DNA from: Escherichia phage HansTraber_Bas100
Sequence record: PQ850605.1
Strand: one strand, 5' to 3'
Length of the DNA stretch: 64,000 nt
The number at the start of each line of letters is the position of its first letter. Position 1 is the stretch's first letter. Below are positions 29,498-44,512 of the stretch, in pieces. Below the pieces are notes generated by a model. It worked only from the letters and a program-made list of their open reading frames with translations, was not told the origin of the DNA and searched no databases. Both the position numbers and the translations under genes were made by a program.

Positions 29498-30475
29498 TTA
29501 AAAATACTCCATATCGGTAATATCACGGAAGCATTTATACAAAGCAGAGCGCGGCACGTCGACGATGCCAAAGTTAAAGAATTTATACGTTAGGTATTTA
29601 TCGCGATAGTTCTCGCGATTCTCCCAAAGCATTTTACGCTCTGCCATAGGCATTGAACCAGCGGAGACGCGGAAAGGAATCATTTCACCTTTCTCATCCA
29701 CATATTTTGGATTGACGACTACGAATGAGCCAAGGTATCCTTTCGCAACTAAACCTTCAGCCTCTTTTGAACGCTTGGTGCGACCCAATTCGTCAATGAA
29801 TGCTTCGTTGTTGTTCTCCATCATCTCAACGAAGTCTATGATCAACCCTTCTTCATCGGTCCACGGCTTGTCCTTCCACACATCACGTGACTTCGGCGTC
29901 GCGCGGCCATGCTTATATTTGCCCGTCCAAGACTTGCCATACAAGCCTTCATAGCCAAGCTGGTCTGCTTCGATTTGCATTGCCGCGTACTGGTCCATAT
30001 TTTCGATGTTGCGATATTCGAGAGCGCGAAGGAATGGACGTCGGCCATGGTCAATGAGATGTTGATTGACCTCAGCAACACGTCGATTGTACTTCTCATA
30101 ACGGGCCGAGAATGGCAAATCAGGTTCGCTAAAGTCATCAAACACCCACCATGTAAAGTTAGTGATTGCATCAGTGTTCATGCATGCAGTATAGGCCTGT
30201 TGCATGACGTTCTTGTCATTTGGATTGCCGTCGATTAGCTCTCCATCAAGTCCGTGAATTAATTCACCCAAGAAGAGGAACTCTTTTTTGATTTGAATGT
30301 TGCGCAGCGCCATGCCGGACGTGCCCATTGGCAAGTTGTCATACGCCATTGCGCGTATGCCATCGACCTTGAATGACAATCCGCAAGGCAGCGGCACGTC
30401 TTCGCCGCGCTCGATTATTTGCTTACGCTGGCAACCCTTCATTGGTTTTAATGCTTTGATTTCTCCTGCCATCAC
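29498..30475 (-). CDS. ATP-dependent DNA ligase
   Basis: motif I KVDGIR (adenylation lysine) near N-terminus; 325 aa. Confidence 0.7.
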   Translation of the reverse strand: MMAGEIKALKPMKGCQRKQIIERGEDVPLPCGLSFKVDGIRAMAYDNLPMGTSGMALRNIQIKKEFLFLGELIHGLDGELIDGNPNDKNVMQQAYTACMNTDAITNFTWWVFDDFSEPDLPFSARYEKYNRRVAEVNQHLIDHGRRPFLRALEYRNIENMDQYAAMQIEADQLGYEGLYGKSWTGKYKHGRATPKSRDVWKDKPWTDEEGLIIDFVEMMENNNEAFIDELGRTKRSKEAEGLVAKGYLGSFVVVNPKYVDEKGEMIPFRVSAGSMPMAERKMLWENRENYRDKYLTYKFFNFGIVDVPRSALYKCFRDITDMEYF

Positions 30476-31065
30476 TCAAACTCCTTATTCATCACTTGTT
30501 CCAGCGCATAGGCGTAATCCTGATCAGTCGATTTGATAAACGTGCCGTTGTACATGACGCCTTTGCGGTCTTTGATGTCTTCGTAGGCAGCTTGCGCACA
30601 GTCGGATAAGCGAAGGCCATAATCATGAGCTACGCCGGAAAGGTAATCGACTGCGGCCATGATGTTGACGTCAATATCCATGGTTTGATTCTTGGCAATA
30701 GCATCACCAAGTCGTCCAAGGGTCTTTGCCAGGCGAAGGATAAATGAATGAGGGTGAGCGCCTTTATCAGCGCAACCGCCGCCATTAATGTTTTCGATTT
30801 CAGCACCGTTTTGCGCTGCCAGGATGGTCAACACAACAAGGCAATCGCCAATGTCGTCCTTAATTGCAGCTTGCAAGTCACAGATGGCCTGCTCTGTATA
30901 TCCAATTTCAGGGTCGAAGAACACAAGGTCATGGAGTTGATCAACGTGGTCGGTTAACTCCCCAAACTCGCTGATAAGCTTCGGGTATTGGTCCTTAAGG
31001 TCGCAACCTTGGATGATGTTACGGTCAGAAGCCCACTGGCGAATGTTTGCATAAATCTGTTTCAT
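30472..31065 (-). CDS. mazG: MazG-like nucleoside triphosphate pyrophosphohydrolase
   Basis: 197-aa ORF with EFGELTDHV-type acidic motif; 4-nt overlaps with both neighbours. Confidence 0.65.
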   Translation of the reverse strand: MKQIYANIRQWASDRNIIQGCDLKDQYPKLISEFGELTDHVDQLHDLVFFDPEIGYTEQAICDLQAAIKDDIGDCLVVLTILAAQNGAEIENINGGGCADKGAHPHSFILRLAKTLGRLGDAIAKNQTMDIDVNIMAAVDYLSGVAHDYGLRLSDCAQAAYEDIKDRKGVMYNGTFIKSTDQDYAYALEQVMNKEFE

Positions 31066-31637: not shown

Positions 31638-32498
31638 TTAAAACTCTTCTGCGTCGGTCGGAGTTTCATTGACAGGACCAGCGGCACCGCTTGCTTCTTC
31701 CTGCTTGCTGCGGTCAATGTTAACGTTGCCGCCAACTACGTCGTTGTGGAATGCTTTAGCGACTTCGTACAGACCTTTATCCTGCACCAGACCTTCCAGC
31801 TCAAACTTAAGAACTGACCAGGTGTTGCCGTCTTTGGACTGAGATGCAGTGCCCATGCGAACAATGTTCATAAAGGTCGGCGGCGTTTTCAGACCCTGCG
31901 GAGTCTGAACTTTCTTCTGCTGCAGAGCGGTCATCAGCATGCGAGACGGCTTGATCATGGAAGAAGTCAGAGACAGCATTGCGCTACCAAATTCACCAGT
32001 TTCTTCGTTCAACAGAATTACGAAGTGGTTGCGTGTATCTGCGTAGTAAGGCGATTTCTTCTCGTGCACCTTGCCGTTTTCGTCCGGCACGAATACCTTA
32101 CCGTTGATCTCAACAGCGCGGCCTGCCGCGACTTCTGCATCAACGTGCTCTTTGGTGAATTCACCTTTAAAGCCTTTATCGTCGGACTCGCGACCGCCCC
32201 AAAGGATGAAGGTGCGTTTGAATGCGCAAGGGATGATCTGCACGCCTTTCTTGCCGTCATACAACTCACCAGTAACGGTGTTGTAAAGCATGCCAGCTTT
32301 TGCACCAGGAACGTGTTTTGGATCATCTTCGTCGACCATAGGAGACATCTTCTGCAGGACGACGATAAAAGGAATGGCATACGCATCGGCATCGGCACCT
32401 TCAAAACCAGCGCCAAAATCGGTCATGTCGACAAAATCAGCCATAGCGGACATCTGGGTGTTTTTCACTGCAACTTCGGTAGTTTCTTTCTTAGACAT
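31638..32498 (-). CDS. hypothetical protein, possibly an SSB (acidic tail ending in Phe)
   Basis: 286-aa ORF in replication block; C-terminus TPTDAEEF resembles acidic Phe-terminated tails of E. coli SSB and T7 gp2.5. Confidence 0.4.
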   Translation of the reverse strand: MSKKETTEVAVKNTQMSAMADFVDMTDFGAGFEGADADAYAIPFIVVLQKMSPMVDEDDPKHVPGAKAGMLYNTVTGELYDGKKGVQIIPCAFKRTFILWGGRESDDKGFKGEFTKEHVDAEVAAGRAVEINGKVFVPDENGKVHEKKSPYYADTRNHFVILLNEETGEFGSAMLSLTSSMIKPSRMLMTALQQKKVQTPQGLKTPPTFMNIVRMGTASQSKDGNTWSVLKFELEGLVQDKGLYEVAKAFHNDVVGGNVNIDRSKQEEASGAAGPVNETPTDAEEF

Positions 32499-32557
32499 TT
32501 GATATTTTCCTATAGTATCAAGTTTCGTGGCAACCTGATTTCAAGATAAAGGTTAAA

Positions 32558-33115
32558 TTACTTTTTGCTTTTAGGCAAGGTTATTTTAGCTTCTTTGTAT
32601 TCAAAAACGCTAATATCTTCACTAACTGGATTGCCCGCTTCCAGCTGTTCTTTTACAAACGACTTCAGTGTAGCAGAATGAACGCCTTGTTTCAACGTGG
32701 CTTCAACACCATCTTCACGCAGCGCGGCAACAATCTCTTGCGCCTGTTCGATTTCTTCGCGACCGAACTCAGCCGTGACGCTGGACTTGATCAAGCCGCC
32801 GTAACCGTTGTTGACAAGCCAATCGAAAACTTTTAATTCGTTTTCTTTCTTGATTGAAGCGTTCACCTTGGACTCGACCTTGATTTTGGTCTTGTCCTCA
32901 AGCTTGATTTCGGACACACCAAGCTCATCCATAACGCCAGGAAGCAGAACAGTTTTGATTTCACTGATGCGCTGCTTTTGCATATCAGCTTCATCTTCAA
33001 GCTCTGTCAAAGCCTCTTGGCGTTCTGCCAGTTCAGATACTAAGCGCGCAAGGCGCTCTTGAATGCTCTCAGGAGCGACCTGCGGCAAATCATCTTCCCA
33101 ATTAATATTGCTCAT
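32558..33115 (-). CDS. hypothetical coiled-coil protein
   Basis: 185-aa ORF in replication operon. Confidence 0.5.
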   Translation of the reverse strand: MSNINWEDDLPQVAPESIQERLARLVSELAERQEALTELEDEADMQKQRISEIKTVLLPGVMDELGVSEIKLEDKTKIKVESKVNASIKKENELKVFDWLVNNGYGGLIKSSVTAEFGREEIEQAQEIVAALREDGVEATLKQGVHSATLKSFVKEQLEAGNPVSEDISVFEYKEAKITLPKSKK

Positions 33116-34973: not shown

Positions 34974-35392
34974 GACAATTCCTCTAAATACTTGATGATG
35001 TGATGAATAGTTCCCTTCACGATTATCTCACGTTGAACGTCTGCAGTATTATAACGCTTTAATTCAATAGAAGGGTGGACTAAATAAAACATCTTCTCAG
35101 AATCAACCTTAAGCAAAACGAATGATGGGTATCGCCAATCATTCCACGAAGAAAGGAAGCTGCACTGTCCTTTCTCAAATGCATTTCTGAAAGGTGCAGT
35201 GGTTGCCCTTGCAGGCCACGATTCAAAGAACTTCATTTCAAGCCAAAAGCCGCGCCCTTTCCGGTTGGTGCCGATTACGTCCGGCACGCCATCACCAGTC
35301 ATCGACTCGATTCGTTGAAGCTTCAATACCGATTCTGAATGCTTCTTCAAAGGCACGAATATGTATTTCTGCTCACGGTTATTTGTTGCCAT
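34970..35392 (-). CDS. VRR-NUC-like nuclease (PD-(D/E)xK)
   Basis: GVPDVIGTNRKGRGFWLEMK motif; frequent neighbour of SNF2 helicases. Confidence 0.45.
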   Translation of the reverse strand: MATNNREQKYIFVPLKKHSESVLKLQRIESMTGDGVPDVIGTNRKGRGFWLEMKFFESWPARATTAPFRNAFEKGQCSFLSSWNDWRYPSFVLLKVDSEKMFYLVHPSIELKRYNTADVQREIIVKGTIHHIIKYLEELS

Positions 35393-38276
35393 CTGGATAC
35401 ACCTGTTTGATCACGTCAACGATGAACATGTCAATGCCTTCAAGCTTACGACCTTTCATCAGGAAGAATGCGCCGTTCCCGACGTTTTCAGCAATGTACT
35501 TCCCGTACTTCTGGAACTTCTCTGGACGAATCCTGAAGCGCATTGGCGAGTCGGTCGAGTCGTCTTTGCACATAAGGTCGATGAACTGAGTCTCAAGCTT
35601 GTTCCCGTACTGGTCAAACTCTGCGTAGCGGCCATCAGCTTGAAGACCCTTTTTAAGCTTTCCGTACTTTGTATAAATGCCGCGCTCAAGACGTTTGCGG
35701 ATGCGTGTTGCTTCGTTCTCGTCTGCAAGCACTTTCTTTGTCAACTTGCCGATTACTATTGCGCGCTCGTCATCACCGACTTCCTTCATCTGGCGTATTG
35801 AAGCGCCGGACGTCACGCCAATAAGATAAGGGTCATTATACGCCCAGCCAAACTTTGTGTGCATCTCTGTAAGGTCGCCGTATTTGACTTCAGCATTGGC
35901 CAATGCATCCTTTTGCTTTTGCGTTAAGGTTCCGGCTTCACGTGCTTCGATATACTTCATCGCCTTCACCATTCCGTACCCTTTCGCGTTCATGATGCCG
36001 CCGATTAGCTTTCCGTTCGCGATGGTCCAGTTCATCGAAGAGTGATCAGGGTCGATTGGCACATAATCCACGCCTTCCTTCGCAAGTTCACGTAATATCG
36101 CAATCGTCTGGTCTTCGTCCTTAGCAGCGCGTAAGCAGGCAGCGGCAAATTCCAACGGGTAGTGTCGCTTAAGCCACAAGGTCCAGTAGGTCACGACCGC
36201 GTATGACACGGAGTGTGACTTGTTAAAGCCCCATGACCCGAACGTAGCCATCGCTTGCCAAAGCTTTCTTGCATCCGCTTCCGGTACGCCGTTATTGATT
36301 GCGCCTGCAACGAAGTCCTCGCCAAGCTTGTTAAAGTATTCTTCACCCTTACGGCCTGACATTGCCTTACGTACAGCGGACGTTTTCGCCCAGTCAAATG
36401 AACCAATCTCTTTAACCACTGCCATGATTTGCTCTTGGTAAAGAAACACGCCGTAAGTCTCTTTTAAGTACGGCTCAAGCTGCGGCACGTCGTATTCAAT
36501 CGGCGCACGCCCTGCCGCGCGTTCAATGTATTTCTGGGCCATACCGGATGACAACGGGCCAGGTCGACCCAAAGCTGTCAGGTTGTCGATTTTGTTAAAG
36601 TTATCGACGTGAACAAAGTTTGTTACTGATCGTACAGCATCACCTTCAAACTGGAAGATGCCTGACATCTTGTTTTCGTTAAGAATGTCAAGGACGCTTT
36701 GATCATCAAGCTTGATTCCGTAGAGCGTTTCAGCATCAATAACGCCTGTATCAGAAATAATGCCGAGAGTACGAAGGCCCAGCGCATCAAGCTTCAAAAG
36801 GTTGAGGTATTCGCTGTCAGGCTTATCGATTTGCGCAATCCCTTCTGCAGTTACAGTACAGTAATCAGAGATTGGGTCATTACACACGATGATTCCCGCT
36901 GCGTGAACACCTGTGTGGGATGGGTGAATCTCAAGGTCACCCATGCAACGCGCGGCATCAGGATATTTCGCCACGAACTCTTGACCCGTGGTCGTTGTTG
37001 CAAAGGTATCCTCCAGGCCGTGACCATAACGGGCGTCACCGGATGAGTATTCAAGCAATGCGTTTTTAATGTTGGCCGTTTCGTGGTATCCAATGTTGAA
37101 CTTCTTACCAACCTGCGCCATTACTGAGTTGGCCTTAAGCGTGTTGATGTTGCCAAGTTTTGCAACGTTCATTTCGCCGTATTTTTCTTTAAGGTAATCA
37201 AACACCATATAGCGTTTGGTATCCTCAAAGTCGATGTCGATGTCAGGAAGGTCGGCGCGGCTTACGTCGATGAATCGGGCAAACAGCAGCTTATACGGGA
37301 TTGGGTCCACTTCCGTGATGCCGAGGCAATAGCAAACAAGTGAACCAGCTGATGAGCCGCGAGCAGGACCGACGAGCATTTTTGTTTTTGCGAATCGTAC
37401 AAGGTCAGCTACTACCAGAAAGTATGAGTCGAAATCTTTCAGCTGAATCTGGTGAATTTCTTCATTGAATCGGTCCTCATATTCCTGAGTCCATTCTTTG
37501 ATGTGACCTGCTTTTAGACGATACTCCATCCCCTCGCGAGCAAGTTTTACCATGTCACCAGCAAGGTGAATAATCGGTGCCTTGCGCAATTTCAAGTCAA
37601 GTCCGACTATGCCGTTTGCGATGTCAACAGCATTGGCCGTTGCCTGATCAAGTTCATCTTCAGTCAAGATGCCTTTAAGCTGTTTGCGCAAATCTTCAAC
37701 GTCCACGATGCAATGCGGCTTAACCGTGTCGCGCACTTCCCACGCATAAGCGAAGTAAACATGCTCAGGAGAAGGCATGTGATTGTATCCGGTTAAAACC
37801 AGCGGCCTTCCACCACTACGATGAGCCAATGCCTGGCGTTTTGCCAAAAGGAACGACGATGGGTTGACGTCTATATAGTCGTAGTCCTCTGGCCGCAGCA
37901 GCTCCACGGCACCGCCACAGAATTTAACGACGCCATCGAGCGCCCCGAACTCTGCACGGGTAAGCCCGCCGCGCTGCGTTGCAAGCGTTGTAGCATTGTA
38001 AAAAGATTTTAAGTCAAGGGCCAATATCCAAGCCTTCGGTTTAAATCCCTTTTTCGGGTCCGCATCAGGGTCGATGATTGGAATCTCCATCCCAAACATA
38101 GGCTTAATATCATTTTTCTGGCATTCCTTTTCCCAGCGAACGTGACCCCATGTATTGTTATCAACTAATGCCGCGACTTCGCAGCCCAACTCTTTGAGCC
38201 GTGCTATAATTTCAGGATGCCGTCCATAAACTTCTTTGAACGTGTAACCGCTGCGAACTCTCAATTGTGGAAACAT
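35379..38276 (-). CDS. dnaE: DNA polymerase III alpha subunit homologue (DnaE-type, PHP domain)
   Basis: 965-aa ORF; PDIDIDFED and LLKLDALGLRTL motifs characteristic of Pol III alpha catalytic core. Confidence 0.8.
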   Translation of the reverse strand: MFPQLRVRSGYTFKEVYGRHPEIIARLKELGCEVAALVDNNTWGHVRWEKECQKNDIKPMFGMEIPIIDPDADPKKGFKPKAWILALDLKSFYNATTLATQRGGLTRAEFGALDGVVKFCGGAVELLRPEDYDYIDVNPSSFLLAKRQALAHRSGGRPLVLTGYNHMPSPEHVYFAYAWEVRDTVKPHCIVDVEDLRKQLKGILTEDELDQATANAVDIANGIVGLDLKLRKAPIIHLAGDMVKLAREGMEYRLKAGHIKEWTQEYEDRFNEEIHQIQLKDFDSYFLVVADLVRFAKTKMLVGPARGSSAGSLVCYCLGITEVDPIPYKLLFARFIDVSRADLPDIDIDFEDTKRYMVFDYLKEKYGEMNVAKLGNINTLKANSVMAQVGKKFNIGYHETANIKNALLEYSSGDARYGHGLEDTFATTTTGQEFVAKYPDAARCMGDLEIHPSHTGVHAAGIIVCNDPISDYCTVTAEGIAQIDKPDSEYLNLLKLDALGLRTLGIISDTGVIDAETLYGIKLDDQSVLDILNENKMSGIFQFEGDAVRSVTNFVHVDNFNKIDNLTALGRPGPLSSGMAQKYIERAAGRAPIEYDVPQLEPYLKETYGVFLYQEQIMAVVKEIGSFDWAKTSAVRKAMSGRKGEEYFNKLGEDFVAGAINNGVPEADARKLWQAMATFGSWGFNKSHSVSYAVVTYWTLWLKRHYPLEFAAACLRAAKDEDQTIAILRELAKEGVDYVPIDPDHSSMNWTIANGKLIGGIMNAKGYGMVKAMKYIEAREAGTLTQKQKDALANAEVKYGDLTEMHTKFGWAYNDPYLIGVTSGASIRQMKEVGDDERAIVIGKLTKKVLADENEATRIRKRLERGIYTKYGKLKKGLQADGRYAEFDQYGNKLETQFIDLMCKDDSTDSPMRFRIRPEKFQKYGKYIAENVGNGAFFLMKGRKLEGIDMFIVDVIKQVYPDGNK

Positions 38277-38818
38277 TATTTACTCCAGATGTCATATACG
38301 CCAATTTGTTGGCAGACTTTGTGCAGTAATATTACGTCGTCTAATGCACGGTGCTTCTGTTCATATTTTCCGAAATATAATTCATACAACTCTTGAAGCT
38401 TAACTCTTCGGCCAAAAATAGGCAAGGTTTGCTCAACTGTACAGATGTTTATTTCTGGGAAATTAACATCATCAAGTGTAAGTCCTTCGCGCTGTAGTGC
38501 ATAATCAAGAATGTTCTTATCGAACGCATGGTTGTGCGCGATAGTTGCATCCGTCTTCTTGAATATTTCTTTTAGCTGCGGGACAAAATTGATGAATGGT
38601 GGATTGCACTCAAGGTCTTCATTTGTTAATCCGGTAATCTTTGTGATGATTTCTTCAATCACGATTTCAGGATTAATTATGAATTCAAACGTTTCAAGAA
38701 TCTCTTTGCCGTCCGTCAACAGGCCTGCAAATTCAATAGGGCGCGGCTGCATCCCAAGCGGCGCTTTCGGGTGCACGGTCAATCCGGTTGTTTCGAAGTC
38801 ATAAGGGAGAAATAACAC
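38276..38818 (-). CDS. dnaQ: DnaQ-like 3'-5' exonuclease
   Basis: Exo I motif YDFETTGL and Exo III motif HNHAFDKNIL. Confidence 0.75.
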   Translation of the reverse strand: MLFLPYDFETTGLTVHPKAPLGMQPRPIEFAGLLTDGKEILETFEFIINPEIVIEEIITKITGLTNEDLECNPPFINFVPQLKEIFKKTDATIAHNHAFDKNILDYALQREGLTLDDVNFPEINICTVEQTLPIFGRRVKLQELYELYFGKYEQKHRALDDVILLHKVCQQIGVYDIWSK

Positions 38819-38872: not shown

Positions 38873-39424
38873 TTATACGGTGTACGGAGTACCGTCTTGA
38901 TTCAAGCGCACGATGAATTTCAAATCGACGCCGATGATTTCACGCGTATCAAAGATCACATAGTTGTAACGACGTTGGCCAGCAATGTTTGGGTTGGTGT
39001 GAGAGTCAGTCACGACTTCCTGTGCAACCTGAATGCCTTCTTCGCTAAAGAACTTACGCCATTCGGCAAGTTCAACGGCAGTAACGTGCATGCCAAGATG
39101 GCTCACTTGATTGTCGTGCGCATCGAGCATTTCGATGTTTTCTTCAATCCAGTTACACCCTTTTGTATAGTCGAGAATTTCAAGCTCAAGAGGCTTACCA
39201 GCGCCGCCATCCGTGCCATTGCCAGACTGATAGTTGAAGCGCAAGTCAGCTTCATTGGTGCAATCGTCGCGACGACCTTTAAAGTCATCAGCTTCAAATA
39301 CGCGACCAGTAGCAACAACATGATCATGGAACCATTCTGTCAGGCCGATTTTAGCCAAGAAATCCTGTGCGCGCTGAGCATCTGGAATTGACAGGGCGAT
39401 TTGTTCAATTTTAAAATGTGGCAT
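38873..39424 (-). CDS. VOC/glyoxalase-like fold protein (tentative)
   Basis: N-terminal FKIEQIALSIPD..AQDFLAKIG pattern resembling glyoxalase/bleomycin-resistance fold. Confidence 0.35.
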   Translation of the reverse strand: MPHFKIEQIALSIPDAQRAQDFLAKIGLTEWFHDHVVATGRVFEADDFKGRRDDCTNEADLRFNYQSGNGTDGGAGKPLELEILDYTKGCNWIEENIEMLDAHDNQVSHLGMHVTAVELAEWRKFFSEEGIQVAQEVVTDSHTNPNIAGQRRYNYVIFDTREIIGVDLKFIVRLNQDGTPYTV

Positions 39425-39521
39425 TTTTGTTTCCTTAATTAAATATTATTGATTAATTACTGTGTTGTCTTCGTCCTGTTTCTTTTCAGGAGCGGGTGTG
39501 ACAACTTCAAATGTTCGTGAT

Positions 39522-40205
39522 TTATTTACCAAATGGAATATCAGTACCAGACATAAAGCGCCATGCGCCAGTAATTAAGATATGGCGAATGAAGTCGGCA
39601 ATTACTTGCGGCTCAGTCTCCAATCCATTCATCAATGCCTTTTTCTGGTATTCAGCGGCGTATTCAGGAGTCCAGCCGCGAGTCGCACAAACGGCATCTT
39701 CAATCTGTTTAGACATGCCGGTGCCGCGCAACTTGTTAGGACTAATAGAGAATACCGTGATGCCGTACTTAGGCGTAAGTTCGTGAGCCATCTGCTTGCT
39801 GATCATAAGCGCAGCAGCCTTGGATGCATTATAACACAAGCTGGACGTCATAGGAATATGCGCAGCGTTGGAAACGATGTTGATCACAAAGCCTTTGTTG
39901 TCGATAAGACTTTTCAGCGCAGCCTGAGTCGTGTTAACGAAAGAGAATGCGTTGGTGTGCATAACGCGGTTAAACTCTTCATAGTTTACATCTTCAAACC
40001 AATTGTTAGAGTTGACACCAGCACAGTTGATCAAGCCTTCAACATCATATGGGCTTAAAATTTCTTTCATCTGTTTAGCATCGCGGACGTCATATCCGTA
40101 TGCTGAATCGATGCCAAGCACGTTATGACCGTAAGCGCCAAGGGTGTCAAAAATAGATTTACCAAGACCGGAATTGGAACCTGTTACAACAATTACTTTT
40201 TTCAT
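39522..40205 (-). CDS. short-chain dehydrogenase/reductase (SDR)
   Basis: TGSNSGLGKS dinucleotide-binding motif, NCAG, catalytic YNASK (YxxxK). Confidence 0.75.
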   Translation of the reverse strand: MKKVIVVTGSNSGLGKSIFDTLGAYGHNVLGIDSAYGYDVRDAKQMKEILSPYDVEGLINCAGVNSNNWFEDVNYEEFNRVMHTNAFSFVNTTQAALKSLIDNKGFVINIVSNAAHIPMTSSLCYNASKAAALMISKQMAHELTPKYGITVFSISPNKLRGTGMSKQIEDAVCATRGWTPEYAAEYQKKALMNGLETEPQVIADFIRHILITGAWRFMSGTDIPFGK

Positions 40206-40271
40206 TTATTTATCCTTTTTTGGACTTCGTTTCGATGAGGTAAATATAACTCATCGAAACGCACAAGTAAA

Positions 40272-41147
40272 CTATTTATTGAAATTAATATTATGGGTGT
40301 TGACAAGACGTTCACACATGGCGCTATAAACACCATCGTCGTGTATCGAGTCTTCATGCTTCAGGCCGCTGATTGCGAAGCGTGTAAGCTTGACAATCTT
40401 AAGCTCGAACAGGTGCCACATGTGGTAGTCTTCCGGTGTCTTCAACGTTACGCCATTAGGGAACAACACCTGCATAACCTGACCTACCATCACAGCGTTA
40501 TCGCCATAAACGGCATTGCGCTCACGGAAGGTCGCGGCCATCGCATCAAGAATATCAGCAGCGGTTGCTGGGGCTTGTTGTTCAACTTCAACAAGTTTAG
40601 TCTCTTCTTTTCCTGTTGCACTTGGATCAACTGCTAATTGTTGCACCACTTCACCTGCCTTGCAAAGATTAAATGTAAAGGCGATTTTATTTTGCGCCAT
40701 GGAATTATAATGCAAAGCTTCTTCTTGCATCCGCGCGAGTACGTCTTGTCTATCTTCAAATACGTTGATTATTCGATAATCGCCGTGTCGCAATACATAC
40801 GATAACCATGCAGATTTCATAACAGTTGATGGACGCTTGTCGCCATGTTCTCTCATCTTGATTGTGAATTCATCAAAAGGGAAAACGTTGTCCAGACGTT
40901 CAAAAGTGACTTGTCTGTATTTTTCTGGTCTTGCAGTCCAATATTCGACCGCCTCACCGCGAAGTGATGCCGTCTCTACTGCTGACGCAATGTTAGGATA
41001 GAACTGATCATAACCAATGCCGCTGTGGTAATCATCATAGTCGGACAACGGGCCTGCCACCCTGATACGGTCTAAGCGCCAACGGTCATCAAACAGAGTT
41101 CCGTCAAGGTCGAATACGTTTAAGATTTGGTTATTTTTGATACTCAT
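40272..41147 (-). CDS. HAD-superfamily phosphatase fused to C-terminal domain of unknown function
   Basis: motif I VFDLDGTLFDD near N-terminus; 291 aa. Confidence 0.55.
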   Translation of the reverse strand: MSIKNNQILNVFDLDGTLFDDRWRLDRIRVAGPLSDYDDYHSGIGYDQFYPNIASAVETASLRGEAVEYWTARPEKYRQVTFERLDNVFPFDEFTIKMREHGDKRPSTVMKSAWLSYVLRHGDYRIINVFEDRQDVLARMQEEALHYNSMAQNKIAFTFNLCKAGEVVQQLAVDPSATGKEETKLVEVEQQAPATAADILDAMAATFRERNAVYGDNAVMVGQVMQVLFPNGVTLKTPEDYHMWHLFELKIVKLTRFAISGLKHEDSIHDDGVYSAMCERLVNTHNINFNK

Positions 41148-41947
41148 CCTTTTGATACTCCATCTTTGGCAACTGGATTATTGGTGATTGGCATCGCATC
41201 CCAAAACTGGATGCGCAACTCTTCTTGCTGTGCAGTGGTATCCATCCAATCACGATACCATGGGCAATGGGCCTTACCGTGACGAGGAAATGCGCACTTA
41301 CCCATACCGATGCACTGCGGCTGTAGTAAAGGATTGGCCCACGGGTGCACCTTAAGGACTTCCGCAACCATTGCACGGAATACTTCTTGATACTCGCCTT
41401 GAGTACGCGTGCACAAGCGGTTAGAGGCCATTTGTTGTAGAGTGCGCAAGTTGAACTTTGCCATGATATGCGTTTGCATATTAGAAGGCAACACGGCACG
41501 TGCATCTTGAATCTCTGCACCAGCCGCGCGAAGTTCTTGGTATAGGGCGTCAATGGTTGCCATTGCATCATCCCACTTCTCTGCAAGTTCAGCGGCCTTC
41601 TTGTCGTGACGAGTCCATCCCCTTGGATCATCCTCTGGGTAAGTGAATTTAGCAGGACGAATCGCATCAAATGCAGAAGATTCCTGAGCGCGGCTGGTGC
41701 GTTCTTGATATGCGCCTGTGCGTGTGCGTACCATCTGATGAGTCATATTCTTTGATACAGCGGTGATGTCAAAGATATAGTCCACAAAGTCAAAAGGCGA
41801 CTTGATGGTGTCAAGCATGTAGTGCCAATGCTCTTGCTTCTCTGATTCCGTCATCTCAGAGACAGGCTTACCAGTCATGCGCGTGCTCTTTGTTTCCAGC
41901 AAAAGGTCAAGTGCATCTTGGGTGTATCGAATTAATTCAACTTTCAT
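41144..41947 (-). CDS. thyX: ThyX-like flavin-dependent thymidylate synthase family protein
   Basis: segments PFDFVDYIFDITAVSKNMTHQMVRTRTGAYQERTSR and ARAVLPSNMQTHIMAKFNLRTL align to ThyX core; canonical RHR is RTR here. Confidence 0.65.
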   Translation of the reverse strand: MKVELIRYTQDALDLLLETKSTRMTGKPVSEMTESEKQEHWHYMLDTIKSPFDFVDYIFDITAVSKNMTHQMVRTRTGAYQERTSRAQESSAFDAIRPAKFTYPEDDPRGWTRHDKKAAELAEKWDDAMATIDALYQELRAAGAEIQDARAVLPSNMQTHIMAKFNLRTLQQMASNRLCTRTQGEYQEVFRAMVAEVLKVHPWANPLLQPQCIGMGKCAFPRHGKAHCPWYRDWMDTTAQQEELRIQFWDAMPITNNPVAKDGVSKG

Positions 41948-41960
41948 TTTAATTATCCTA

Positions 41961-42407
41961 TTAACGGTAATTTACTAGTTGCTGATCACCAGAGAAGGTG
42001 CAATGATAAACGAATTGTGCGTTATAAAGCAACTGAAAACTTTTCTTTGGTTCATTATTAGAACTCATTGATGTAAAGATTTCTGCACCAGAACGGTTTT
42101 CACCAATCAGGTTGATAAAGCCGCCAGTTGAACGAGGCTGAACGAAAGTGAAACGTTGCATCCAAGGAGTGCGGTTGGCACCTTTGCCTGTGAATCCTTG
42201 AATCTGAATATTCAGACCTTCTTGCTCGTTCACGCCGATGTAAGCCGTGATAGTTGCGCCAGTGGCTGCTGCGGTTTTACCGTCCATCGCTTCGCAATCA
42301 TACACAGCGATTGAATCGGAAGTACGGACAGCGGCTTCAGTCGCTTCCATATACATGGTGCCGAGAATAGCAGTTGCGGCAAGCGCGATTCCAGTGATTC
42401 GTTTCAT
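41961..42407 (-). CDS. secreted protein of unknown function
   Basis: N-terminal signal-peptide-like MKRITGIALAATAILGTMYMEATEA; 148 aa. Confidence 0.5.
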   Translation of the reverse strand: MKRITGIALAATAILGTMYMEATEAAVRTSDSIAVYDCEAMDGKTAAATGATITAYIGVNEQEGLNIQIQGFTGKGANRTPWMQRFTFVQPRSTGGFINLIGENRSGAEIFTSMSSNNEPKKSFQLLYNAQFVYHCTFSGDQQLVNYR

Positions 42408-42472
42408 TTTCGTTTCCTCTATGAGTTCTGCTTCAATGATTAAAGTATACGCCCATTGAAGCAGAAAGCAAA

Positions 42473-43468
42473 TTATTTATTAGCAATATAAGCAAATTTT
42501 TGATAGTTATTTGCTTTGATGAGTTTTTCAACTTCAACAAGGTCATGAGCGACATCATCAAGCAAAATGTTGCGCCAGGTAGCAAATCGACCGACACTAA
42601 ACACGTTCAAATCCATAGTCAGCTGCAGGAGTAGGGCGTGTCGCAAGTCCTTCGGAATGTCGACAATCTTGCCATATTTCTGGTCGACCTTTTCAACTTC
42701 TTCAAGAGTAATGTCACTCCATGAGAGGCCAAAGGCTGTCAACACTTCGTCGACTTCTGCGCGCAGCTTCATGTCGCGGTAACGAGTGATGCCGCCTGCG
42801 GCTTCAACTGCAGCTGCACTTACGCTGACCAAAGGAATGGTTTCGATGATAAGTGTGTCACCAGTGATTGATGCGCGGTAAGTTCTGACGGAGTAGTCAG
42901 GGAAGTAAATTGTCTGATACAACTCACACTTACGTTTAATCTTAAAGCGGTAAACACGAATGTTTGTTTTATCAAATGAAAAATCAAGCTTTTGATCAAT
43001 CCCAGCCAGCTTCATCATAACTGGAAGCGGCGACGTGTTGATGATTGGCGTCTCGCTATAGCCGCAAAGCGTGTCAACCGGAGTGTTAAAGAATATACGG
43101 TCCCCCAGTTTATCGACAAGCTGATCATAGAAGTCGTCTGGCGCAATATAACGCGTTGCAGTTTTAAGCTTCATGATTGAGCGGCTGCCAAACTGATTGG
43201 TGACCTTCATGGAATACATATTGGCAAGGTTGATTGGGCAATGGTCGTGATAGTAGTTACCGCGAAAATACACAGCCTTGTCAACTGTCACTGCCTTAAA
43301 AGGGATTCCGGTAATACGGCTTACTTCTTCGCCGCGAAAGCGTAGCAGCGCCTTGTGCTGTGGCGCTCGCTCCCCTGCTTCGTACACAATAGAGTTCGGG
43401 AAGTGACACGCGGTAATAAGTCCTGCCAAACCGCCGCCGATAATCATTACAGGTTGTTTCATGTTCAT
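42473..43468 (-). CDS. FAD/NAD(P)-binding oxidoreductase
   Basis: N-terminal Rossmann motif VMIIGGGLAGL (GxGxxG); 331 aa. Confidence 0.55.
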   Translation of the reverse strand: MNMKQPVMIIGGGLAGLITACHFPNSIVYEAGERAPQHKALLRFRGEEVSRITGIPFKAVTVDKAVYFRGNYYHDHCPINLANMYSMKVTNQFGSRSIMKLKTATRYIAPDDFYDQLVDKLGDRIFFNTPVDTLCGYSETPIINTSPLPVMMKLAGIDQKLDFSFDKTNIRVYRFKIKRKCELYQTIYFPDYSVRTYRASITGDTLIIETIPLVSVSAAAVEAAGGITRYRDMKLRAEVDEVLTAFGLSWSDITLEEVEKVDQKYGKIVDIPKDLRHALLLQLTMDLNVFSVGRFATWRNILLDDVAHDLVEVEKLIKANNYQKFAYIANK

Positions 43469-43602: not shown

Positions 43603-44442
43603 TTATTCCGCTTGATCACCGTCTTCAGCATCGTCGTTGGATTCAACATCGACAAACTCGATGTGGCCCATCTCTTCCAGCTTGCTCAGGTAGGAGCGAA
43701 CGGAAGCGCCAAACAGTTGATCTTTAACTTTCTCGCCCAGCTCATCGATAGACTGTGCCACGCCAACTTCGCCTTCTTTGATCGCAGCCAGAACGCGTCC
43801 ACGGGTGGAATGCTCTTGCGGCTGGCTCAGGCCATTACCAGTGTAGATGAAGTGAGTAGCTTTTGCACGACGCTGACCGTTTGCCTTTTTAGCAGCCTTA
43901 CGTTCTGCGATGGCTTTGCGACGTTCTTCAGCTTCTTTCTTACGCTGTTCTTTCTGCTGTTCTGCAGCTTCTTTCGCCGCAATCTTAGCAGCTTCACGCT
44001 CTGCCTTGCGTTTCGCTTTAGCTTCTTCTTTGGCCTTCTCTTTTTCGGCCTTCGCTGCAGCACGGGCTTGATCACGCTCTGCTTTCTTAGCAGCAGCTTG
44101 TTCAGCTTTCAGGCGCTTGGCTTCTTCTTTAGCCTTTGCCTTTTCGATTTCTTTCGCTGCTTTAGCGGCTTCACGCTCTGCTTTCTTAGCAGCGGCCTTT
44201 TCTGCACGCTCTTTAGCTTTCTTGGCTGCTTCTTCAGCACGCTTCTGAGCCTTCTCATCAGCAGCCTGCTTGCGTTTCAGCGCAGCTTCTTCACGCTTGG
44301 CTTGTTTTTCCTGCTCACGCTTCTGGCGTTTTTCTTCGGCTTCTTTCTTTTTAGCCAGGCGTTTTTCTTCAGCCACGCGACGACGTTCTGCTGCAGCTGC
44401 TTGTTTTTCTTCTTTAGATAATACTTTGATTGCTTCGGCCAT
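43603..44442 (-). CDS. K/A/E-rich repeat protein with structured C-terminal domain
   Basis: ATG 44442 with AAGGA RBS preferred over track GTG 44448; about 180 aa of KAEEAAKKAKERAEKAAAKK-type repeats. Confidence 0.6.
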   Translation of the reverse strand: MAEAIKVLSKEEKQAAAAERRRVAEEKRLAKKKEAEEKRQKREQEKQAKREEAALKRKQAADEKAQKRAEEAAKKAKERAEKAAAKKAEREAAKAAKEIEKAKAKEEAKRLKAEQAAAKKAERDQARAAAKAEKEKAKEEAKAKRKAEREAAKIAAKEAAEQQKEQRKKEAEERRKAIAERKAAKKANGQRRAKATHFIYTGNGLSQPQEHSTRGRVLAAIKEGEVGVAQSIDELGEKVKDQLFGASVRSYLSKLEEMGHIEFVDVESNDDAEDGDQAE

Positions 44443-44512
44443 GTTCACAGTCCTTAAATAAATTAGTTTATTTTATATTCCCCGTTTGGGATAACTTAAT
44501 TATGCCTTCAGT

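Follow-up and report, generated by a model that had tools for sequence, protein, structure and literature searches.

Hypermodified thymidine is known from the DNA of several phages. Phages ViI, M6, PaMx11, SP10 and PhiW-14 make it with a ThyA-family deoxyuridine monophosphate (dUMP) hydroxymethylase, a P-loop 5-hydroxymethyldeoxyuridine (5-hmdU) DNA kinase and aGPT-Pplase, an amino-acid:DNA transferase (Lee et al., 2018; PMC8989533). Here we analyse a cluster of six minus-strand genes at positions 38873-43468 of a 64,000-nucleotide stretch of DNA, hereafter called the window, from Escherichia phage HansTraber_Bas100 (PQ850605.1). We propose that this unit is an operon whose products would make a restriction-protective hypermodified thymidine, carrying a sugar or polyol on the C5-methyl group of thymine, in the phage DNA. 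To this reading, which is suggested by gene content and conservation, we assign a probability of roughly 0.58, and each single chemical step discussed below is held with much less confidence than this general claim. Although thymidine hypermodification itself is known, neither this enzyme set nor such a role for a member of the ThyX family is described in the literature that we searched.

The proposed pathway would have much in common with those of the five phages named above, namely a phage-encoded, restriction-protective derivatisation of the C5-methyl group with partial replacement of thymidine, the transfer of a one-carbon unit from methylene-tetrahydrofolate onto dUMP, a core combined with variable tailoring enzymes that include flavin-dependent ones, and a location near replication genes (PMC8989533). 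It differs in that those phages append amino acids or polyamines, whereas the relatives of the module in Pbunavirus occur in phages with sugar-like adducts. It is also built on other proteins: a ThyX-family enzyme, a flavoprotein of the UDP-galactopyranose mutase/protoporphyrinogen oxidase (UGM/PPO) class and a fusion of a haloacid dehalogenase (HAD) phosphatase with a DUF6378-like domain (HAD::DUF6378), while the signature families of the described pathways were not found here. The six-gene cluster contains no ThyA-type hydroxymethylase, 5-hmdU DNA kinase (5-HMUDK) or aGPT-Pplase. Neither these families nor TET/JBP enzymes or glycosyltransferases were detected in 20 other non-structural open reading frames (ORFs), a scan that covered ORFs of at least 119 aa and the genome up to its last ~4 kb.

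Other known systems resemble parts of the proposal. Among the closest are UGM itself (Glf) and the UGM of phage RL38J1, which has been implicated in the formation of glycosylated 5-hydroxycytosine (PMC13326640). Ribofuranosylation dependent on phosphoribosyl pyrophosphate (PRPP) and followed by dephosphorylation by a HAD enzyme, as carried out by the Haemophilus influenzae type b (Hib) capsule polymerase Bcs3 and by the ribofuranosyltransferase of T. composti (PDB 7shg), provides an analogy and not a shown homology of function. No phosphoribosyltransferase domain was identified here, and phosphatases of the polynucleotide kinase-phosphatase (PNKP) type match the HAD domain better than Bcs3 does. 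The epimerisation of ribose to arabinose by DprE1, a flavin adenine dinucleotide (FAD) enzyme, and DprE2, a short-chain dehydrogenase/reductase (SDR), is a further parallel, from which the module differs in that DprE1 has the vanillyl-alcohol oxidase (VAO) fold and the flavoprotein studied here another one. In the synthesis of base J, JBP hydroxylates thymine in DNA and the 5-hydroxymethyluracil formed is then glucosylated, leaving a fraction of thymine replaced by a base with a sugar on 5-hydroxymethyluracil. The end product proposed here, DNA in which the 5-hydroxymethyl group of uracil bears a sugar, would be the same in kind, but host range and enzymes differ entirely, and the window scan gave no match to Fe/2-oxoglutarate (Fe/2OG) dioxygenases or to any glycosyltransferase family.

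A conserved gene module

The window comes from a Wifcevirus, a myovirus of E. coli, and 28 Wifcevirus genomes, among them vB_Eco4M-7, WFC, ECML-117 and Bas98-101 of the BASEL collection, match 38873-43468 with 92-97% identity. The six consecutive leftward genes listed in an earlier note, made from the sequence alone, are all present as ORFs at the coordinates given there. Five of the six form a collinear module, which starts with the flavoprotein gene (331 aa; 42473-43468) and continues with the genes for the ThyX-like protein (41144-41947), the HAD::DUF6378 fusion, an SDR (39522-40205) and a protein resembling the vicinal oxygen chelate (VOC) superfamily (38873-39424).

The two strongest terminator-like hairpins on the minus strand bracket the six-gene unit. 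The upstream boundary is an 8 bp stem with a T-run (43574-43554) between a K-rich gene and the FAD gene, followed by a weak promoter-like site (43534-43507). The downstream boundary is a strong hairpin (38856-38837; 8 bp stem with 7 GC pairs, and a T-run) directly past the VOC stop codon, and in the record of phage Mansfield terminators are annotated at both corresponding positions. The stop codon of the ThyX-like gene overlaps the start codon of the HAD gene (ATGA), and the two are translationally coupled. With this bracketing, the overlap and the same order in dozens of distant viral contigs, chance is a poor explanation for how the genes are arranged.

A profile scan of IMG/VR with the flavoprotein gave 497 confirmed relatives, of which the best 80 loci were analysed. 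The order flavoprotein, ThyX-like protein, HAD::DUF6378, SDR, VOC-like protein, exonuclease and PolIII-alpha-type polymerase recurs down to about 40% flavoprotein identity, and a ThyX-like gene is present in all 54 loci that extend at least 4.5 kb downstream of the flavoprotein gene. This five-gene form was seen in 46 loci and a three-gene form in 16, the remainder being truncated. The SDR and VOC-like genes are present or absent together and co-occur in 46 loci. A tblastn search with the flavoprotein identified 361 phage records (Pseudomonas 292, Escherichia 26, Serratia 9, Rhizobium 8, Xanthomonas 6 and others), and the ThyX-like gene occurs in the same phage groups in near-identical counts. 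The 1912 flavoprotein homologues compare with 8 matches in 185,579 species genomes, the real ones all on contigs of metagenome-assembled genomes (MAGs). MAG contigs with a flavoprotein identity of only 28-37% have the same gene order where the flanking DNA suffices. The flavoprotein family is essentially phage-exclusive, and the module almost so.

The three core genes are found in Pbunavirus F8 and 14-1. In 14-1 the flavoprotein (gp66), the ThyX-like protein (gp60) and the HAD fusion (gp58) are encoded upstream of the exonuclease and the polymerase, with no SDR and no VOC-like gene. A comparison with 14-1 had made the SDR and VOC-like genes look like additions specific to Wifcevirus, an idea that the IMG/VR survey overturned. 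In a 40-kb Vibrio podovirus the flavoprotein and ThyX-like genes are adjacent and are followed by genes for a HAD-like protein (DLDGT motif, by eye), a sulfotransferase-family protein, the exonuclease and PolIII-alpha. In a 206-kb Rhizobium phage a 7-kb stretch holds the whole three-gene core, surrounded by NUDIX, dUTPase and ribonucleotide reductase (RNR) genes and outside the synteny with PolIII-alpha.

The ThyX-like protein

The ThyX-like flavoenzyme (41144-41947, minus strand) contains a Thy1 domain (PF02511, 105.2 bits vs a cutoff of 24.8) and scores 81.6 bits with the NCBIfam thyX equivalog TIGR02170, below the cutoff of 87.9. It aligns weakly with T. maritima ThyX (E about 5e-5). The alignments bear out the observation of the earlier note that its RHR motif reads RTR, and in place of the signature RHRxxSxxxxSxR the protein has RTRTGAYQERTSR. 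Active-site residues were tabulated in T. maritima numbering for the ThyX-like genes of every flavoprotein-carrying locus (n=79) and for five comparators, which were conventional phage and archaeal-virus ThyX proteins and T. maritima ThyX. All 79 proteins linked to the module have the dUMP-binding residues R78, R80, R90, R147, R174 and Q75. In the same 79 of 79, His53 is replaced by Ile, His59 by Phe and His79 by Thr, Ser or Asn (RHR thus reading RTR, RSR or RNR). Tyr91 is replaced by Val or Ala in 77, and at position 88 most have Thr in place of Ser. Among the five comparators, four have His at positions 53, 59 and 79, and all five have Tyr or Phe at 91. His53 is reported by Koehn et al. (2012) to stack on the folate pterin in a shared folate/NADPH site, which our literature search did not confirm; the PDB matches of the ThyX-like protein include 4gtf, an H53A structure.

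Taken together, these residues point to a fixed non-canonical subfamily, in which the nucleotide site is kept and the site for cofactor or second substrate is systematically different. With canonical ThyX (T. maritima TM0449, PDB 1O26 series) its members share the Thy1 fold and R78/R80/R90/R147/R174/Q75, and they differ from it in the altered RHR motif, the replaced His53, His59 and Tyr91, a score under the equivalog cutoff and a gene always paired with that of a second flavoprotein.

The Wifcevirus and Pbunavirus proteins and the 'ThyX-like' protein of mycobacteriophage KandZ (RQR motif) also have in common a Cys-rich C-terminal extension (C-x5-C ... H/C-C; 41144-41350, minus strand, in the window; other loci considered were L005:10163-11080 and L006:154-1254), which is missing from the Vibrio and Rhizobium versions and from canonical ThyX. 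This extension may be a metal site.

The flavoprotein

The first gene of the module (42473-43468, minus strand) encodes a member of phrog_4828, a family listed as of 'unknown function'. The FAD-binding Rossmann fold proposed in the earlier note is borne out by the AlphaFold2 (AF2) model (pLDDT 87, pTM 0.83), which has a two-domain FAD fold. Foldseek places this model in the broad two-domain FAD superfamily, in the structural class of UGM, protoporphyrinogen oxidase and amine oxidase, and UGM is its best structural match, though perhaps not by a clear margin. As a genuine UGM (Glf), the protein fails at the sequence level. It matched no Pfam family at E <= 10, the GLF domain included; searches of PDB sequences, with the single sequence and with a profile, matched the Rossmann dinucleotide-binding motif alone; and an hhalign comparison with the genuine Glf of L. 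plantarum aligned 26 residues, all of them in the Rossmann motif. What is left is a weak resemblance in a C-terminal FAD motif. We name the protein UGM/PPO-class, not UGM. Arg and Lys are numerous among the invariant positions of its family, which would suit an anionic substrate.

The HAD::DUF6378 fusion

The third core protein begins with a PNKP-type HAD phosphatase domain (residues 1 to about 175; 40623-41147, minus strand), which matches Pfam HAD_PNKP with 30.8 bits (cutoff 27.6). The DxDxT nucleophile motif and HAD motifs II-IV are in place, with D13, D15, T71, K111, D132 and D135 unchanged across 31 sequences, and the structures nearest to the domain are Pnkp1 and the 3'-phosphatase of T4 Pnkp. 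The database name polynucleotide kinase-phosphatase does not apply to the protein, since the P-loop 5'-kinase domain is absent: the phosphatase domain alone matches, and the rest consists of a linker and a DUF6378-like bundle.

The HAD phosphatase of the earlier note is thereby retained with a more precise family, and the domain of about 130 aa that had been fused to it without a name can be described as DUF6378-like. This domain (residues 194-291, ~97 residues; 40275-40568, minus strand) is a four-helix bundle with helices at 196-279. The window copy itself has no Pfam match, and DUF6378 (PF19905) matches 14 of 16 homologous domains (best E 9e-5), with near-full model coverage in one of them (P0167), the reported bit scores of the homologues all lying under the cutoff of 27.1 bits. 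Against the window protein called 'MazG-like' by PHROG, hhalign gave a probability of 0.7%; the four-helix bundle is compatible with the fold of a MazG-like all-alpha NTP pyrophosphatase but not diagnostic of it. A deep profile search with the domain gave 1998 representative proteins, comprising HAD fusions and stand-alone proteins of 100-200 aa, and a search of the literature on DUF6378 yielded nothing usable.

In the five-gene form the domain is the best-conserved element (median identity 63% vs 48% for the polymerase). In three-gene loci its median falls to 42%, with the other module proteins unchanged. The domain is 100% identical in proteins only 56% identical overall: four homologues (P0122, P0130, P0131 and P0133) have a domain with 100% protein identity to that of the window and diverged HAD domains, with overall identities of 56-90%. 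Extreme constraint or a recent domain exchange could account for such identity.

The SDR, the VOC-like protein and the variable slot

The classical SDR (39522-40205, minus strand) matches adh_short with 109 bits, and the motifs TGxxxGxG and YxxxK reported in the earlier note recur in the conserved residues T8-G9..G13-L14-G15, N60-C-A-G63 and the tetrad N85/S112/Y125/K129, at least 95% conserved in 41 sequences. A conserved Asp33 at the end of strand beta-2 indicates a preference for nicotinamide adenine dinucleotide (NAD). The best family and PDB matches are of the FabG, glucose dehydrogenase and acetoin reductase types, and no pteridine reductase was found among PDB matches at E <= 1e-8. The neighbouring gene (38873-39424, minus strand) exists as described before, but the proposed VOC/glyoxalase family is reached only below threshold (Pfam Glyoxalase_4, 16.7 bits vs a cutoff of 27), and the sole support for the superfamily is InterPro IPR029068, assigned to the protein in the Mansfield record. 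The family conserves Q8, E80, E82, H109, H113, H142 and D167, and its profile found no sequence relative in the PDB.

The position of the SDR and VOC-like genes is a slot whose content varies by lineage. Three loci carry S-adenosylmethionine (SAM)-dependent methyltransferases (Methyltransf_11/12, above cutoff) and one a polysaccharide pyruvyl transferase (51.6 bits vs a cutoff of 25.3); these four variant genes lie at L096:6424-7398, L089:12402-12974, L084:8826-9326 and L065:12619-13116. Vibrio phage vB_ValP_VA-RY-3 has a sulfotransferase-family protein in the slot (gp33, L004:10229-10984; PF13469, 30.4 bits vs a cutoff of 27). No glycosyltransferase or kinase family recurs in the module loci. 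Such slot enzymes are typical of sugar or hydroxyl tailoring. A conserved core with interchangeable enzymes of this kind is how a biosynthetic cluster that works on a sugar-like group is built, and not a unit for deoxythymidine monophosphate (dTMP) supply; the variability of the slot predicts a family of chemically different adducts.

Further genes are inserted in some loci. The slot of four SDR-less loci holds a ~270-aa protein with an acidic 'DDD/DDN' stretch (L051:8431-9267, L052:7221-8057, L096:7377-8207 and L029:13590-14399), which resembles GT-A glycosyltransferases by eye and has no Pfam match. Of 56 loci, 10 have a gene for a pyrimidine-dimer DNA glycosylase like T4 endonuclease V (Pyr_excise, E 1.5e-14) inserted after the ThyX-like gene and before the HAD gene (L073:6401-6919, L037:11913-12344, L039:2387-2818 and 7 other IMG/VR loci). 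The presence of a thymine-directed base-flipping enzyme inside a suspected thymidine-modification module may not be coincidental. Two loci encode, between the flavoprotein and the ThyX-like protein, another PNKP-type HAD phosphatase (L029:11217-11798 and L024:11023-11817), which matches HAD_PNKP with 87 bits and contains an insertion, CxxC...CxxC, like a zinc ribbon.

Modified DNA in Pbunavirus and restriction resistance of Wifcevirus

According to a 2025 preprint, DNA of Pbunavirus F8 resists enzymes with TG-containing sites. Its authors further report that about a quarter of the thymidine in the virion DNA of F8 and 14-1 is replaced by derivatives with masses of 362 and 390 Da, which they describe as derived from a tetrose sugar alcohol and as a cyclised derivative of an aldopentose. 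Genes previously tied to hypermodification are absent from Pbunavirus according to the same preprint, which names no biosynthetic genes, and our literature search found no gene assignment for this modification. The two masses follow from simple arithmetic: 258.2 (5-hmdU) + 122.1 (tetritol) - 18.0 = 362.3, and 258.2 + 150.1 (pentose) - 18.0 = 390.3. The three-gene core is what Pbunavirus and Wifcevirus share and, judged by gene content, would be the best candidate for the missing Pbunavirus pathway.

Between 14-1 (L005:11276-12292) and F8 (L090:6114-7178), the HAD::DUF6378 proteins differ mainly in the linker between the two domains, where an acidic 'AEDA' repeat has expanded. HAD::DUF6378 was considered as the protein that tracks the adduct difference between the two phages; it is the most divergent (79% identity), but mainly in this linker repeat, and the comparison is not decisive. 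The small neighbours gp59, gp61 and gp62 are only 78-82% identical in a region that is otherwise 94-98% identical.

In the BASEL study, Wifcevirus phages Bas98-101 resisted all tested restriction-modification (RM) systems except EcoP1_I and were described as having 'no known genome protection mechanism'. The resistance covers EcoRI, EcoRV, type I systems and EcoCFT_II, whose sites are present; BASEL counts for Bas98 are 36 EcoRI, 6 EcoRV, 93 EcoCFT_II, 82 EcoP1_I and 5 EcoKI sites. The window has 18 EcoRI sites and 85 EcoP1_I sites (AGACC). AGACC/GGTCT contains no AT or TG dinucleotide, and the EcoRI and EcoRV sites contain AT. One may speculate that a context-dependent modification of thymidine lies behind the pattern of sensitivity to EcoP1_I and resistance to the others. 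A window search for a homologue of the Pbunavirus anti-END inhibitor (gp88 of 14-1 and its neighbours) found none, which is uninformative for proteins that are small and fast-evolving.

Proposed pathway

The ThyX-like flavoenzyme would bind dUMP and install a one-carbon unit at C5. Lacking the canonical cofactor-site histidines, it probably gives a product other than dTMP, either a 5-hydroxymethyl group or an exocyclic methylene trapped by a nucleophile, a step for which the known exocyclic-methylene intermediate of ThyX provides the basis (PMC8989533). The UGM/PPO-class flavoprotein might supply, rearrange or oxidise the sugar part, by flavin-N5 chemistry like that of UGM or by oxidation. By analogy with PRPP-based ribofuranosylation, the PNKP-type HAD domain could remove a phosphate from an adduct derived from a sugar phosphate, or from a nucleotide, and the fused DUF6378-like domain could be an accessory that handles nucleotides or pyrophosphate. 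In the five-gene form, the NAD-dependent SDR and the VOC-like protein might further oxidise or isomerise the sugar, following a logic comparable to that of DprE1/DprE2. The Wifcevirus adduct should then differ from those of Pbunavirus, and such a difference could be related to the broader RM resistance, which includes EcoRI and EcoRV sites without TG.

Put together, these steps would make up a third, flavin-based route to hypermodified thymidine, which we offer only as a tentative and rather doubtful scheme. A repurposed ThyX would make the handle on dUMP, and the flavoprotein and the phosphatase::DUF6378 protein would attach and finish a group derived from a sugar phosphate, with no canonical glycosyltransferase, 5-hmdU kinase or aGPT-Pplase and with a swappable tailoring slot. 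Many phages with DnaE-type polymerases would then use this route, the therapeutic Pbunavirus and Wifcevirus among them.

With a compact candidate gene set common to both phage groups, the modification genes of Pbunavirus and the restriction resistance of Wifcevirus become testable. Both groups can be rebooted from assembled DNA, as indicated by vB_Eco4M-7 and by the title of PMC10913387. If the proposal is true, it extends the ThyX family by an activity not known before, gives UGM-class flavoproteins a further role, provides a marker (about 1,900 flavoprotein homologues) for predicting hypermodified genomes in metagenomes, and informs the design of phage therapy against modification-dependent defences, e.g. 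END nucleases.

Weighing the explanations

That the cluster does more than plain dTMP synthesis and possibly belongs to a DNA-modification pathway had been suggested in the earlier note; the conservation of the module, the distinct ThyX-like subfamily, the core in Pbunavirus and the RM resistance of Wifcevirus favour this suggestion, all of them indirectly. Several points weigh against it. With all nucleotide-binding residues in place, the ThyX-like protein may yet function as a thymidylate synthase whose cofactor site is merely altered. The assignment of the flavoprotein to UGM is weak, and that of the VOC fold is weak and tentative. The link to Pbunavirus is guilt by association, and other genes common to both genera may be responsible for its modification. 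The synteny could largely reflect common descent of a block of replication genes. F8 and 14-1 have different adducts although their FAD proteins are 97% and their ThyX-like proteins 94% identical, and their HAD::DUF6378 proteins differ mostly in the linker repeat. The TG-context specificity in Pbunavirus implies a sequence-reading step on DNA, and the module proteins have no recognisable DNA-binding or base-flipping domain; the module may supply a precursor only. Since Wifcevirus also resists at EcoRI and EcoRV sites, which lack TG, its chemistry or sequence context must differ from that of F8, and protein anti-restriction factors may be the cause of its resistance. PCR-assembled, unmodified DNA of vB_Eco4M-7 reboots normally in a cloning strain, so that the modification is not essential in a permissive cloning host. 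A literature search for nucleoside or in-vitro restriction data on Wifcevirus found nothing usable.

The genes might instead serve the ordinary nucleotide supply of a very fast-replicating phage, with a divergent but working ThyX, a flavoprotein that reduces or recycles its flavin, a HAD::DUF6378 protein that balances dNTP pools as a nucleotidase/pyrophosphatase and any modification genes located elsewhere. We regard this as unlikely. It accords with the retained Thy1 fold and dUMP-binding residues, with the location among replication genes (the Rhizobium phage copy lies beside dUTPase and RNR), with the many phages that encode ThyX alone and with the action of PNKP-type HAD domains on phosphomonoesters of nucleotides or nucleic acids. 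It does not account for the strict coupling to a UGM/PPO-class flavoprotein (54/54), for the loss of three histidines in 79/79 proteins with near-universal replacement of Tyr91 (77/79), or for a slot that holds SDR and VOC-like, methyltransferase, pyruvyl transferase or sulfotransferase-family genes; in addition, the hosts already carry ThyA, and canonical ThyX reduces its own FAD with NADPH. A nucleotide sugar or glycan that is not destined for DNA, such as host surface polysaccharide or the glycosylation of virion proteins, with the ThyX-like gene as a mere neighbour, seems quite improbable to us, even though UGM is the best structural match of the flavoprotein, polysaccharide tailoring typically involves pyruvyl transferase, sulfotransferase-family proteins, methyltransferase and SDR, the neighbourhood often has inserts encoding small secreted proteins and these phages recognise O-antigen or lipopolysaccharide (LPS). 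Apart from the ~270-aa protein of four loci, which has no assignment, the module was not seen to encode a glycosyltransferase, a flippase or an enzyme of lipid carriers. Its constant companions are the ThyX-like gene and the replicase, and not genes for tail or lysis; translation of the ThyX-like and HAD genes is coupled; and the flavoprotein fails the sequence tests for UGM.

A folate or pterin cofactor cycle, in which ThyX makes dTMP, the SDR is a reductase of the pteridine or dihydrofolate type and the flavoprotein is a redox partner, had been called equally possible, a ranking that no longer holds: we consider it very improbable. The idea draws on the location of an SDR beside a ThyX-family gene, and some SDRs (PTR1, sepiapterin reductase) do reduce pterins. 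The flavin-dependent ThyX reaction yields tetrahydrofolate and not dihydrofolate, so that no dihydrofolate reduction is needed. The SDR itself is a generic, FabG-like enzyme with the Asp at the end of strand beta-2 that is typical of NAD-dependent SDRs. Its best matches, FabG, glucose dehydrogenase and acetoin reductase, include no pteridine reductase at E <= 1e-8. It is missing from the three-gene form, all Pbunavirus included, and in other lineages a methyltransferase, pyruvyl transferase or sulfotransferase-family gene holds its slot. What probability remains beyond the hypermodified-thymidine operon and these three alternatives goes to something else.

Genes outside the module

The sixth gene of the cluster (41961-42407, minus strand), that of the secreted protein listed in the earlier note, encodes a small protein with a signal-peptide-like N-terminus and had no family match in domain scans. 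Among the loci of the IMG/VR survey it was seen solely in those of Wifcevirus (L010-L012), and in other lineages unrelated small secreted or membrane ORFs occupy its place. It does not belong to the conserved module but is an insert specific to this lineage, a moron. The MazG-like gene (30472-31065, minus strand), which had been placed beside the cluster, is likewise rejected as a member. Its place is ~8 kb from the cluster, with the ligase and spanin genes on either side; it shows no synteny with the module and matches PHROG families only (phrog_1992 and phrog_715), with no Pfam match at E <= 0.01.

Directly downstream of the module, its near-invariant neighbour encodes a DEDDh exonuclease (38276-38818, minus strand; RNase_T, 78.7 bits), followed by the PolIII-alpha-type polymerase (35379-38276, minus strand), a downstream neighbour in almost all loci; both are named in the record annotations and may be functionally coupled to the module. 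Directly upstream lies a gene for a 281-aa protein (43603-44448, minus strand; phrog_4765, function unknown) with a long Lys/Ala/Glu-rich N-terminus of low complexity, resembling histone H1, and a globular C-terminus. This gene is kept in myovirus-type loci and not in podovirus-type ones, and its product may be a DNA-binding protein. Further along the same strand block (31638-33115, minus strand), two conserved proteins match Pam3_Gp34 (289 bits) and DUF7307 / Pam3 gp33-like (128 bits) in Pfam, matches that would tie this part of the replication genes to the lineage of cyanophage Pam3.

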